From positions 806,001 through 870,000 of the forward strand of contig NW_027590138.1 in assembly GCF_964213995.1 (NCBI RefSeq): a stretch of 64,000 nucleotides of DNA. Reading direction: 5' to 3'. The DNA is from Mustelus asterias (Eukaryota). The notes below the pieces were generated by a model that was given only the letters and a program-made list of their open reading frames with translations, was not told the DNA's origin and made no database searches. Position 1 is the stretch's first letter. Each line of letters begins with the position of its first letter. The position numbers and the translations under genes were made by a program. Below are positions 4,641-51,022 of this stretch, in pieces.

Positions 4641-5109
4641 CGGAGAGTCAGCATGGATTTAAGTTGCCAAATGCATTTCCTTCTATGTTGTAATCTCTGC
4701 ATCACTGGAAATTGATAAAGCAGCCACACTGCTGTATATTTCAAGTCAAAAAATATGGGATCATAAATAACATATCTCTCTCCCATACAAATTTACAGTT
4801 CATTTAAATGTTAGCCCTCTTCTGGGAAAACTGAATTGTGAACATTGGGTAAGAGGCTACCCTATTAGCCAGATAAACTGAGGGAACTAAAAGATGTCAA
4901 TGTCTTTGAGAGAGAAACAAAAATATACCTGGGCCTAGTCCTGTTCCTGAATCCGGTCTTCATCTGTAACCTTTCCAGAGTCTGCAGCCTCCCTGGATTC
5001 ACTTCCTTTCCCTTCAGTTGCTGCAAGTCCCCAATTTCCCCCAGAATGAGAAAAGAAATGGAAAGGGGGAAACATTGATTTCCTCCCAGATGTTGCCCAG
5101 AAGAGGGAG

Positions 5110-5520
5110 TTTGGACAACTTCCGCATTGTGACGTCCATAAGAGAGCTCTGCCTAAATCAGCCAATAGGAATCATTCTGCTCCGCGATGACGTCTCCGGG
5201 TTCCAGTGCTCAGGCCCGGGCGTGCGGACCCGGGAGCCCCGCCCCCACCCATTGTTCCCCCTCCACCTCTTCCAGCCACGGTTTCCAATCAACCGGCTGA
5301 CGGCTCCGGCCAGAGCGAGAAGCCGCGTCATGATCGCCCCCTCCCTCGGCCCGGGACTGCGCATGTCCAAGGGAGAGGGGAAGATGCGCATGTGCGGGGC
5401 GAGCCAACCTTTTGACCTGCTGCTGAGGTGTTGGCCAATGGAAAGTTGGAGGAACGGATGTTCTGGTCCTCCAGCCAATCAGAGCTCGCCCATTGTCTGA
5501 ATGCGGAAGTGGACAATGAG
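5110..5520. promoter_or_regulatory. CpG-rich bidirectional promoter cassette, copy 1
   Basis: TGACGT (CRE-like) x2, CCAAT boxes, GC box CCCCGCCCC, NRF1-like TGCGCATG x2, ETS CGGAAGTG. Flanked by inverted leader-exon copies at about 4893-5110 (-) and 5549-5650 (+). Confidence 0.75.
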
Positions 5521-6099
5521 CTTGTTCAGCTGCTCATTCCTGCCTTGACTTGCAGCAACTGAAGGGAAACGGAGTGACTCCAGGGAGGGTGCAGACTCTG
5601 GAAAGGTTGGCCCAGGTTTCTCTTTCTCTTAAAGACATTGACATCCTTTGCTCCCTCAGCTTGACACATTGATTTGTCTGGCTAAAAGGTCCCTTTCCTA
5701 ATGTTCACAATTAAAGGGCTGGTTTCCCCTGGTGATGGCTGACATTTAAAAGGACAATAAATTAATATAGGACAGAGATATGCCTTGTGTTGTTATATAG
5801 TAGATTTGGTATAATATTTATGGTTCTGTAACAAAGTACGTTTATTATTATTTCTTGTTTTGTAATGTAGCACTGAAGCTATGTTATATATTTTCACTCA
5901 TTGAGTCATTACAGCGCAGAAGGAGTCCATTCAGTAACTCGAATCCATGCCGACTCTCTGTAGAACAATCCAGTCAGTCCCATTCCCTTTCTATATTCCC
6001 TTTCCCCTGCAAGTTTATTTCCTTCATGTGCCCATCTAATTTCTGAAATATATTAAAGGGGACAGTAAACTAATATCGGACAGAGACGTGTCTGATGTT

Positions 6100-6452
6100 G
6101 TTTTTTATTCATCCTTGGGACACGGGCATTGCCGGCTGGGCCAGCATTTATTGCCCATCCCCAATTGCCCTTGAACTGAATGGCTCGCTCGGCCATTTCA
6201 GAAGCTGGGTGAGAGTCAACCACATTGCTGTGGCTCTGGAGTCACATGTAGGCCAGACTGGGTAAGGACGGCAGATTTCCTTCCCTAAAGCACATTAATG
6301 AACCAGACGGGTTTTTTGGTCAATCGACAATGGTTTCATGGTCATCAGTAGATTCTTAATTCTAGATTTTGTTTTCAAATTCAAATTCCACCATCTGCCG
6401 TGGCAGGATTCAAACCCGGGTCCCCAGAACATCAGCTAAGTTTCTGGATTAA
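6100..6452 (-). mobile_element. tRNA-derived SINE family 2 (L2-type tail), split by the CR1 at 6453-8000; head remnant at about 8001-8033
   Basis: GCCAGCATTTATTGCCCATCCC...GGCAGATTTCCTTCCCTAAAG...GATTCAAACCCGGG. Other copies at about 12775-13090, 17225-17578, 38975-41177 and their mirrors. Confidence 0.7.
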
Positions 6453-47686: not shown

Positions 47687-48361
47687 TCACTCGTGAACTT
47701 GTTGGTGTCTCAAAAGGTGGGATGAAAGACTGAATTTCTTCTCACACACAGAGCAGGTGAATGGCCTCTCCCCAGTGTGAACTCGCTGGTGTTTCTGCAG
47801 GTGGGATGACTGAGTGAATCCTTTCCCACACTGAGAGCAGATGAACGGCTTCTCCCCAGTGTGAACTCGCTGGTGTATCTGCAGGTGGGATGTCCGAGTA
47901 AATCCCTCCCCACATTGACAGCAGGTGAATGGCCTCTCCCCTGTGTGAACTTGGTAGTGTGTCTGCATGTGGGATGACTGAGTGAATCCCTTCCCACACT
48001 GAGGGCAGGTGAATGGCCTCTCCCCAGTATGAATGTGCTCATGTGCCCGCAGGTTGGATGAACAAGCGAATCCTTTCCCACACTGAGAGCAGATGAATGG
48101 CCTCTCCCCAGTGTGAGCTTGCTGGTGCCTCCGCAGGCTGGATAAATGACTGAATCCCTCCCCACACTGAGAACACGTGAACGGCCTCTCCCCAGTGTGA
48201 ACTCGTTGGTGTGTCCGCAGGTTGAATGACTGAGTGAATCCCTTCCCACACTGAGAGCACGTGAATGGTCTCTCCCCAGTGTGGCTGCGCTGATGAGCTT
48301 CCAGCTCATTTGGGTATCTGTATCTCTTCCCACAGTCTGCACATTTCCATGGTTTCTCCAT
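47687..48361 (-). CDS. C2H2 ZNF, 8 fingers
   Basis: ACCATGG at 48361 (MEKPWKC), eight intact fingers, acceptor TTTTACAG|GATAT near 48696. Confidence 0.9.
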
Positions 48362-50079
48362 GGTACAGGTGTCCTTGCCTCTGTCTTGGGTGGACAATCA
48401 GTTGAAGCCTCGTCCGCACACAGAACACGGGTACAGTCTCTCCCCGCTGTGAATGGTGTGATATTTATTCAGGCTGTGTAACTGGTTAAAGCTCTTTAGT
48501 CAGTGCGCTGGAAGATTCTCACTCGCGTGTGGCAGTGTGTTGGTGCTTTTCCAGTCACACTGATGTTTGAAATCTTTTCAAATCGACAGACCGGACAACA
48601 ATTTCTCCTTCTAGATTCAGCTCCCAAGGAATATGACTCTGTCAGATCCAGACGTGACGTTTGAGATTTCGGCCTGTGATTCCTCTTTCAATATCCTGTA
48701 AAATGAGTTTACAAAAGTCATCAGTGTCAGTACAGGATAGAAATTCAGAACAGGATTCTATTTAAAAATGAAATTGGATGGGCACTTGATGGAAATAAAC
48801 TTTCAGGAGAATGGGGATATCGAGTGGGAATGGGACTGGAATGTTATACAGAGAGTCAGCATAGACTCGAGTTACCGAATGGATTCCTTCTGTGCTGTAA
48901 TTACTTTATGACTGGAAATGTATAACATCGCTACAGCCTTATATTACAATGCAAGAAATAATAATAAATGTATTTTATTACAGAAGCATAAAGAATGTAT
49001 CTAATCTGGGTACCATATAATAACACTAGACATATCTCTGTCCTATATTAATTTACTGTACGCTTAAATGTCAGCCATCTCCTGGGGAAAGCTGCCCTTT
49101 AATTGTGAACATTAGGAAAAAGACCATCTTTTAGACAGACAAATAAATGTGTCAAGCTGAGGGAGCAAAGGATGTTTACCAGGCTGATTCAGGGAATCAC
49201 AGGACTGATGTAGGAGGAGAGACTGACTAGGTTAGGATTGTTTTCGTTGGAGTTCAGATGAATGATGGGGGAATCTCAAAGAGACTGATAAAATTCCAAC
49301 AGGTCGAGACAGGATAGATGCAGGGAGGATGTTCCTGATGGAGTCCAGAACTGGGGGTCACAGTCTGAGGATTCAGGGCAGACCATTTAGGACGGAGGTG
49401 AGGAGACATTTCTTCACCCAAAGAGTGGTGAGCCTGTCGAATTTATTACCACAGGAAGTAGTTGGTGCCAAAACATTGAATGTATTCAAGAGGCGGCTGG
49501 ATAAAGCACTCGGGGCGAATGGGATCACAGGTTATGGGGAAAAAGCAGGATTAGGCCATGATTGTAATGAATGGCGGAGCAGGCTCGAAGGGCCAAATGG
49601 CTTCCTCCTGCTCCTACCTTCTATGTTTCTATGTCAATGTCTTTAAGAGAGAGAGAGAGACCTGGGCCAACCTTTCCAGAGTCTGCAGCCTCCCTGGATT
49701 CACTTCGTTTCCCTTCAGTTGCTGCAAGTCCCCAATTTCCCCCAGAACGAGAAAAGAAATGGAAAGGGGAGAAAAGAAAGTGTTTTACTCACAGATATTG
49801 GCCTCTTTTAGGTCAAAACAAATGAACAAACTCAAGTTAAATCATGACAAAGTAAAAGGGGCAGCTCCCCAAAAGGAGGGGGAACAGCCCGAACAAAAAT
49901 CAAAGTACAAAGGAAAGAGCTAGATGTTGGCCTCTTTTAAGGAAATAAGTGATAAATTAGTTATCCGCCAGGGTTCGATGTCATCTGATCGCTTGTTTGG
50001 AGAATAAAACATACTTAGGTACCTCGCTTCCTCTGGGATATGAAGCTGTAATCCATATAATCTCAAATAACTCCCTTCC

Positions 50080-50520
50080 GACAGGAGGAAGTTTCAGTGC
50101 AGCTCAATCTGAGTGTCACAAAGACCTGATTGGCTGGACGACAAGAGTCCTTCCGGTCCTCCAACTCTTCCCATTGGTCAACACCCCAGCATGACGGTCA
50201 GGAGGCGGGCTACCCCGCACATGCCAGTTTCCCCTCTCCCTTGGACATGCGCAATCCCGGGGCCGGGGGGAGATCACCGAGCGGCTTCTCGCTCTGGCCG
50301 GAGCCGTCAGCCGGTTGCCTGGAAACCTTGGCTGGAAGAGGTGCAGGGGGAGGGGGAACAATGGGTGGGGGCGGGGCTCCCGGGTCCGCGCGCCCGGGCC
50401 TGCGCACTGGAACACCATGACGTCATTGCGGAAGAGACTGATTCTTATTGGCTCATTCAGGCAGGCTCCATTGTGGACGTCACAATGCGGAAGCTCGATT
50501 GATTCAGATTCAGACTCAGT
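50080..50520. promoter_or_regulatory. Bidirectional promoter cassette, copy 3 (inverted relative to copies 1 and 2)
   Basis: ATTGG x3, CATGCGCA, GGGGCGGGG, TGACGTCA at about 50418. Leader copies at about 49630-49775 (-) and 50525-50710 (+). Confidence 0.8.
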
Positions 50521-51022
50521 GAAACTCCCTCTTCTGGGCAACATCTGGGAGGAAATCAATGTTTCCCCCTTTCCATTTCTTTTCTCATTCTGGGGGAAAT
50601 TGGGGACTTGCAGCAACTGAAGGGAAAGGAAGTGAATCCAGGGAGGTTGCAGACTCTGGAAAGGTTGGCCCAGGTTTCTCTCTCTCTTAAAGATATTGAC
50701 ATCCTTTGCAGAGTTCCACATGAATTAGAATTGTCTGTACTGAATTTCTATCTTGTTTTGATAGTGATGACTTTTGTAAATTCTTTTTACAGGATATTAG
50801 AAGGAGAGGATTTACTGATAGAAATGTCAAGATCTAACAGTCACTCAATTCATGGCAGCTGAATGTCATCGGTTTGAATCTGGAAGAAGAAACGTATAGC
50901 TGTTTGAATTGGGTGAACCATTGGTGTGAACAGAAAAGCATCAAGGCCCGTGCAACCCGAGTGACGGTGTTCCAGTGCACGTATTGTGAAAACTGCAGGA
51001 GAGACAGAAAGACACACGGATC

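Follow-up and report, generated by a model that had tools for sequence, protein, structure and literature searches.

How did one and the same leader sequence come to stand, in mirrored copies, on both sides of a promoter-like CpG core, and what does this arrangement mean for the zinc-finger (ZNF) genes around it? The locus in question is a stretch of 64,000 nucleotides from the shark Mustelus asterias (contig NW_027590138.1, positions 806,001 to 870,000; hereafter "the window"), which holds a cluster of tandem C2H2 ZNF genes amid copies of long and short interspersed elements (LINEs and SINEs). Eleven ZNF loci were recognized (nine with long frames, two pseudogenes), and six of them are linked, inside the window, to one of three cassettes in which a CpG core lies between two outward-facing arms. 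We consider it fairly probable that the cassette is a bidirectional CpG-island promoter that has been amplified together with its flanking paralogous ZNF genes. Such promoters are themselves of a known kind, and what is new here is the mirrored, over-conserved and non-coding leader, along with signs of exchange.

Mirrored leader arms and their CpG core

Each arm carries a common block, and a 21-nt word from this block occurs exactly six times in the window, as three outward-facing pairs (Table 1), with no further copy at ≤3 mismatches and a mean of 0 copies in 100 shuffled sequences. The block is 90–99% identical over all 15 arm pairings, which bears out the initial annotation in placing the same sequence on both sides of each core. 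We call the arm at the end of the core with the cyclic-AMP response element (CRE) the L arm and the one at the CCAAT end the R arm; the two types differ in their inner parts. The inverted arms match over 122 nt at 95–97% identity and are 516–796 nt apart across the core, a spacing that would put the inferred 5′ ends of two head-to-head genes <1 kb from each other; in cassette 3, ~280 unique bases (49803–50085) separate the core from the R arm. All three cassettes lie between divergent ZNF open reading frames, as annotated. Cassettes 2 and 3 belong to the two arms of a single large inverted duplication (19060–22150 and 50080–53130) and are thus copies of each other, so that the three sightings, correct as a count of copies, provide only two independent cases.

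The inverted likeness extends outward beyond the block into intron, acceptor, and exon, and every arm (6/6) aims at a ZNF acceptor 119–3371 nt away. Since all six arms lead to a ZNF exon through homologous intron, the cassette is, judged by its layout, the product of an old inverted gene duplication and not a transposon end, in line with the ancient inversion originally proposed.

The cores are 85–92% identical to one another, with a GC content of 0.60–0.62 and an observed/expected CpG ratio of 0.62–0.72 over 400–430 nt (0.35 for the window), and together with the region at 44500–45300 they form the strongest CpG islands of the window. The motif order (CRE, CCAAT, GC-box, NRF1-like, ETS) is conserved across all three, as had been claimed, and an outward ETS site is found at each R end. 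Using simple word matches, with a word list taken from the initial annotation after the sequence had been seen, we counted 10–12 motif words per core, compared to a mean of 1.3–1.7 in 1000 shuffles. Invariant columns were also more frequent inside motifs (70/81) than elsewhere in the core (207/298), a difference equalled by one of 378 shifts. No TATAAA word was found in the three cassette regions, nor any YY1 site in the cassettes, and a bacterial promoter scan, unsuited to this DNA, returned nothing. A palindromic core was considered and rejected, the self-match scores being reached by 9, 44, and 32 of 200 shuffles.

Two CpG promoters without the block were available for comparison in the same window (Table 1). 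Against the one-way promoter of gene 42588, cores 1 and 3 scored 39 and 32 (0/200 shuffles each) and core 2 scored 26 (9/200), and the best matches were those read toward the L arm. By this comparison the core is asymmetric and related to the ordinary one-way ZNF promoters of its own cluster. Since it is one-sided and has a CCAAT module in common with a one-way promoter, we infer that it began as an ordinary ZNF promoter, behind which a second gene then came to lie in inverted orientation. The two comparison promoters are also related to each other (0/200 shuffles) and constitute a second ZNF promoter type with NRF1-like, YY1-like, and CCAAT words, whose candidate donors are nearer the consensus at the intron side.

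Table 1 Features of the cassettes, their flanking genes and the regions used for comparison, in window coordinates.
Feature	Position (strand)	Remarks
21-nt word copies	5009-5029(-), 5547-5567(+), 21605-21625(-), 22224-22244(+), 49710-49730(-), 50605-50625(+)	exact matches
Cassette 1, L arm	4893-5110 (-)	inner extension, pyrimidine part, block, 32 extra bases with ATG; candidate donor 4928
Cassette 1, CpG core	5115-5545	ETS, two CRE-like, CCAAT boxes, GC box, two NRF1-like half sites
Cassette 1, R arm	5547-5645 (+)	without pyrimidine part; candidate donors 5606, 5616
Cassette 2, L arm	21527-21715 (-)	candidate donors 21566, 21556
Cassette 2, CpG core	21725-22125	
Cassette 2, R arm	22129-22320 (+)	GTGAGT at 22161; possible 72-nt mini-intron
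Cassette 3, R arm	49631-49803 (-)	followed by ~455 inserted bases at 49175-49630 with LINE-like tail
Cassette 3, CpG core	50085-50500	reversed relative to cassettes 1 and 2
Cassette 3, L arm	50505-50703 (+)	candidate donors 50664, 50674
One-way CpG promoter (comparison)	44500-45300 (-)	of ZNF 42588(-); no block; 21/22 CCAAT module in common with cassette core
Weak CpG promoter (comparison)	32400-32850 (+)	upstream of ZNF 37662(+); no block
ZNF pseudogene exon left of cassette 1	1735-2380 (-)	acceptor region 81% like gene 37662, 60-67% like others
ZNF exon right of cassette 1	8987-10263 (+)	11 fingers from MEKPWK start 9337; SINE and CR1-type insertions in intron
ZNF exon left of cassette 2	20227-21437 (-)	11 fingers; acceptor 21438; 119-nt intron
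ZNF exon right of cassette 2	23034-23983 (+)	acceptor AG lost at 23033; two fingers without a cysteine; probably decaying
ZNF exon, R side of cassette 3	47687-48695 (-)	8 fingers; acceptor intact
ZNF exon, L side of cassette 3	50793-51991 (+)	11 fingers; 119-nt intron; 97% like gene 20227
Acidic-frame exon starts	281, 8987, 21437, 23034, 37706, 43430, 48695, 50793, 2379	
Inverted-duplication arm	19060-22150 (+)	91.9% to reverse complement of 50080-53130; carries gene, L arm and core of cassette 2
Younger inverted-duplication arm	6921-17705 (+)	98.4% to reverse complement of 53227-64000; carries gene right of cassette 1

Introns, finger exons and the leader

The shared intron and the TTACAG/GATAT acceptor expected beyond the arms were each recovered for four of six arms. 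The intron is replaced by the 119-nt form in two arms, and the acceptor has lost its AG in one gene and is of the type of gene 37662, unlike those of the other cassette genes, left of cassette 1. R introns are 82–86% identical to each other, and the L intron of cassette 1 is 66–74% identical to them. Since the R introns have diverged about as much as the cores, core and R side were, by these identities, duplicated together. This supports part of the proposal that a two-gene module is the unit of cluster expansion, namely that the core and one intron were co-duplicated. As "the" unit, however, the module is not supported: finger exons are not grouped by side, two intact ZNFs (42588 and 37662) have different CpG islands upstream, and the youngest duplications are inverted tracts of 3 kb and >10 kb whose ends do not coincide with the module. 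The first four fingers are 71–78% alike among all intact genes, except for two young duplicate pairs, and no grouping of finger exons by cassette side was detected, although the fingers may be too diverged to group. The suggestion of co-regulated intact pairs is likewise not supported, with both flanking genes intact in cassette 3 only (1/3).

The pair 20227/50990 evolves as expected for working genes: the ratio of non-synonymous to synonymous substitution rates (dN/dS) is 0.45 and changes affect 0/44 contact residues vs 14/187 others. The pair 9301/60659 differs by one synonymous and six replacement changes, too few to judge selection. No KRAB or other domain was identified by Pfam in the leader frame or in the three finger frames scanned. 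Matches of the finger array to protein databases were generic, and the first-finger start EKPWKC was found in 2 of the 120 protein matches listed, both from shark. Splicing of one leader to several downstream finger exons was considered and appears unlikely, as genes 37662 and 42588 have their own CpG islands.

The L arms are far better conserved than the core: 142/146 columns are invariant among L arms vs 277/379 in the core (p = 5e-12). R arms are more different from one another than L arms are, and L and R arms still agree at 93–97% in the sequence beyond the donor. Within the cassette 2 L arm, diagnostic sites split perfectly at the block into seven inner sites of L type followed by five outer sites of R type (chance of a perfect split 2/792, with four leading sites left out as end-gap artefacts). 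This mosaic suggests that gene conversion or crossover has taken place in the block, and it is not reciprocal, since both outer parts of cassette 2 are of R type. Selection combined with local decay of the pseudogene side of cassette 1 is another possible explanation of the arm pattern.

The leader itself is now non-coding and probably a remnant of a decayed first coding exon. The nine ZNF exons examined all start, past the acceptor, in acidic frames related to each other (ILEEEDLQ or similar); the frame is whole only in gene 37662 and possibly represents a lost shark-type N-terminal region, and in several exons the acidic frame is followed by decayed fingers. Within the 32 extra bases of the cassette 1 L arm, for which the window holds no other source, lies an ATG from which a frame of 37 codons runs into exon 2, in register with the acidic stretch. 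We read the leader as a first-exon relic because this frame enters the acidic frame and because the same arm has the best donor (7/9 vs 6/9 consensus matches); the chance of such a frame match alone is one in three. Among the five arms with a finger frame, none has a leader ATG in that frame when joined in silico at either candidate donor, and short upstream frames occur in most arms, reaching 40–49 codons in L arms. A present-day coding role of the block was rejected, its open frames showing one synonymous vs seven replacement changes, as was a structured RNA, with folding weaker than in shuffles (z +2.0) and no Rfam match. Protein searches with the N-terminal part of exon 2 gave no matches and found no long protein bearing the leader N-terminus, and the leader frame was seen in none of the longer proteins and, among 1.84 billion, in two short gene calls that are unnamed and lack fingers. 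The block was absent from metagenome and viral contigs, and none of 591 candidates was confirmed. Finally, R arms contain a GT...AG stretch of ~72 nt (22161–22232(+) and 49792–49722(-)) with a pyrimidine tract and G runs, whose GT is absent in L arms; as a mini-intron this is a candidate only, given that contigs of two sequencing runs (X1 and X5) cover it unspliced.

We compared the region 20900–23600 with contigs from other organisms, obtained from one DNA-like sequencing run (X21) and three guessed to be RNA (X1, X2, and X5). Contigs of all three guessed-RNA runs cover the L-side arm, the R-side arm, and exon 2, including the R-specific letters at 22159–22216. No contig of these three runs covers 22538–22901, a gap to which we attach no weight. 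An X1 contig stops matching the window at 21436, 53 letters before its own end, and an X5 contig ends at 21439, next to the predicted exon start at 21437; coming from two different studies, these departures are a weak hint at splicing. Contig ends near 22127–22135 were rejected as a start site, since contigs of the DNA run end there too, and RNA-to-DNA contig depth ratios were set aside, as depth can neither rank gene parts nor give copy number. Related cores are many: in X21, 14–22 contigs differ from the window at single core positions, which gives no copy number, and one near-identical contig spans the intron at 22367–22840.

Weighing the explanations

Taken together, these results are best accommodated by a TATA-less CpG-island promoter common to two paralogous ZNF genes that bear fingers only. 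Its history would begin with an asymmetric core which, read toward the L arm, is related to the one-way ZNF promoters of the cluster. An old inverted duplication would then have placed a second leader, intron, and finger exon behind this core, whose ETS, NRF1, CCAAT, and Sp1 sites would work in both directions. Core, R arm, and R intron were duplicated together later, within larger inverted duplications. Each side would yield an RNA with the arm as its 5′ part, usually spliced to the finger exon, and the protein would begin at the MEKPWK ATG, 230–360 nt into that exon, leaving the leader as a non-coding remnant of the first coding exon. Exchange between copies, by gene conversion or by ectopic crossover within the block, may homogenize the arms, whether or not the RNA is also under selection, and would also let a promoter acquire a different finger exon. 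Many sides decay, and one cassette of three retains two intact genes.

Several observations weigh against this explanation. Its basis is only two independent cassettes, and the motif-count test is partly circular because its word list came from the finding itself, the conservation test being less so. The relation to the promoter at 32400 is significant for core 2 only (1/3 cores), and at all five "R-type" sites of the mosaic, the cassette 1 L arm alone differs. Scored against the donor consensus, the candidate donors are weak (CCCAG/GT with 6/9 matches in five arms, AAG/GT with 4–5/9). On the transcript side, none of the listed runs is on record as RNA, the compared ones being only guessed to be so (18 of the 22 listed, share 0.06–0.09; three compared), and their contigs show neither strand nor start; no leader-to-acceptor joint is found among the 15 of 227 joints listed, and one X2 contig (15) runs unspliced across 21355–21637, which also places the short-intron form in another organism.

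The alternative that we take most seriously, although we consider it unlikely, is a one-way promoter with a passenger, in which the core fires toward L, while the R arm, left over from the inversion, sees little use or has a start of its own. The core is indeed no palindrome, and it resembles one-way promoters when read toward L; the R arms diverge more from each other than the L arms do, and damage is found on R sides (the cassette 1 arm lacks the pyrimidine part, the cassette 3 arm lies 280 bases off, and the cassette 2 gene lacks an acceptor). However, acceptor and frame are intact in the R genes 9301 and 47687, neither of which is separated from the core by another CpG island, the R-specific letters are covered in 3/3 guessed-RNA runs, and the outward ETS site is kept at the R end of all three cassettes. 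We find it rather improbable that the arm is maintained by selection alone, without exchange, as a regulatory RNA or DNA element such as a pyrimidine tract, an upstream frame, or a factor site, the 32 bases of cassette 1 then being a private insertion. The near-invariance of the L arms and their upstream frame of 40–49 codons would suit such a role, and the five "R-type" sites are explicable as changes private to one pseudogene side; yet neither a coding signature nor folding nor an Rfam match accompanies the conservation, the likeness of L to R persists past the donor, and the 32 bases have no source in the window and bring in the best donor as well as an in-frame ATG, which fits an ancestral state.

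The mirrored arms also invite comparison with the bacterial invertible promoters fimS and hin, where an asymmetric promoter likewise lies between inverted repeats, and the initial annotation had suggested that recombination between the leaders could flip the core. If frequent enough, such flips would switch which gene receives its strong end. The length and identity of the arms, their spacing, the asymmetry of the core, and one mosaic-looking arm would allow for this. Unlike in fimS and hin, however, the arms are gene parts, the window holds no recombinase frame, and no reversed copy was seen: the core turns the same end toward the R-type intron in 3/3 cassettes (two independent), with no flipped core among the three in the window. 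Since tracts of 122 nt are also short for homologous recombination in vertebrates, and the mosaic is non-reciprocal, we regard promoter flipping as very improbable. No more credible is a non-autonomous DNA transposon with terminal inverted repeats lying between ZNF genes, for which long inverted ends around a unique centre and the many related X21 contigs might speak. The inverted likeness passes through the block into intron, acceptor, and exon, no direct repeat was seen by eye in the 25-nt flanks at the cassette ends, and core and intron diverge together; in the dispersal check, which covered the window, 6/6 arms are tied to ZNF genes and none occurs elsewhere in the 64 kb.

The surrounding cluster and comparable systems

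At a larger scale, 6921–22150 and 50080–64000 form a large imperfect palindrome centred at ~36 kb, whose identity climbs outward in steps of 74–84%, about 92–95%, and 98–99%, with the step near 17705–19060 located in SINE copies. If the 98% duplication continues, a fourth cassette, mirroring cassette 1, should lie just beyond the window end, at ~65.4–65.9 kb. Each arm of this duplication carries a tRNA-Lys(TTT) gene (16381–16455(-) and 54459–54533(+)) with a SINE directly after it, and a CR1-type reverse transcriptase frame of 497 codons (6529–8022(-)) lies inside the intron of gene 9301, with a partner at 62899–63999. A ZNF pseudogene exon at 30800–31600(+) has no promoter or acceptor recognized close by, and the 3′ ends of gene 539(+) and pseudogene 1735(-) abut or overlap at 1411–1730, which could yield paired RNAs.

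Inverted paralogues are kept alike by gene conversion in the Hsp70 pairs of Drosophila and in the palindromes of sex chromosomes, and these have in common with the present locus inverted copies with patches of high identity (here 74–84%, 92%, and 98% from the centre outward). Unlike in those systems, the best-kept patch here is a leader of ~150 nt and not the coding part, the finger exons being 71–78% alike. Head-to-head pairs of KRAB-ZNF genes occur in humans, though our literature search did not find them. Like the KRAB-ZNF clusters of tetrapods and the FiNZ-ZNF clusters, the present one is made up of C2H2 genes in tandem, whose single finger exon follows a small upstream one; unlike in either, the upstream exon appears no longer to code, and no effector domain was identified in the leader frame or the three finger frames scanned.

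According to the accessible part of one survey, divergent promoters over-represent NRF1, CCAAT, Sp1, GABP, and YY1 sites (PMC2077898). Four of these five motif classes are present and conserved in the cassettes, YY1 being the one missing, and the cassettes resemble vertebrate divergent CpG-island promoters, as portrayed in that part, in a distance <1 kb, a CpG island, the lack of a TATA box, and sites of NRF1, CCAAT, Sp1, and GABP type (PMC2077898). They differ from vertebrate bidirectional promoters in that the genes are paralogous, the 5′ ends are near-identical inverted copies, the unit is multi-copy, and YY1 is absent.

The closest analogue is provided by the silkmoth chorion A/B genes, described in the available portion of their account as divergent pairs on a common promoter, each gene with a small first exon and one large exon; the pairs are repeated, some of them reversed, the small exon is better kept, pseudogenes are interspersed, and gene conversion has been invoked (PMC4639761). 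All of these features have counterparts, observed or inferred, around the cassettes. Chorion genes differ, within the same portion of the source, by their TATA promoters, a coding small exon, and the separation of A and B into two families (PMC4639761), and the cassettes by leaders that are near-identical inverted copies and by products that are DNA-binding fingers. Of two properties expected by this analogy, the joint duplication of the promoter with flanking gene parts was found here, and the grouping of coding exons by side was not.

The FiNZ-ZNF genes of cyprinids are clustered in tandem and turn over fast, each C2H2 gene having a single finger exon and a small exon upstream of it, and the accessible text of that study has no mention of sharks (bioRxiv 10.1101/2022.11.29.518450). 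In cartilaginous fishes, the KRAB families have reportedly been lost (PMC8455134). A term search in PMC11979771 gave no match. Our literature search returned no account of the cassette, nor of the transcription or expansion of ZNF clusters in cartilaginous fishes, although supplements to shark genome papers may list such genes.

In practice, the cassette would be a compact marker, since a single 21-nt word could count the family in any shark assembly, and it could help in mapping conversion tracts and in asking whether a finger exon is inherited with its promoter. A leader common to many ZNF genes would also offer a single handle for knock-down or expression work, for which the accessible text of the cyprinid study provides a precedent in the morpholinos directed against FiNZ-ZNF translation in zebrafish (bioRxiv 10.1101/2022.11.29.518450). 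If the leader is a site at which sequences are swapped, promoter architecture would be tied to the turnover of ZNF genes; if not, the cassette would be a well-kept but ordinary bidirectional promoter. Tentatively, and well short of an even chance, we suggest that the locus belongs to a large cartilaginous-fish family of effector-less ZNF genes on a standard two-way promoter, in which a mirrored leader of 150 nt acts as a recombination platform. In that case, exchange in the leader would both keep it uniform and join promoter ends to new finger exons, the lost N-terminal exon would be readable as a fossil, and cartilaginous fishes would have a route to ZNF diversification distinct from those of the KRAB and FiNZ clusters.

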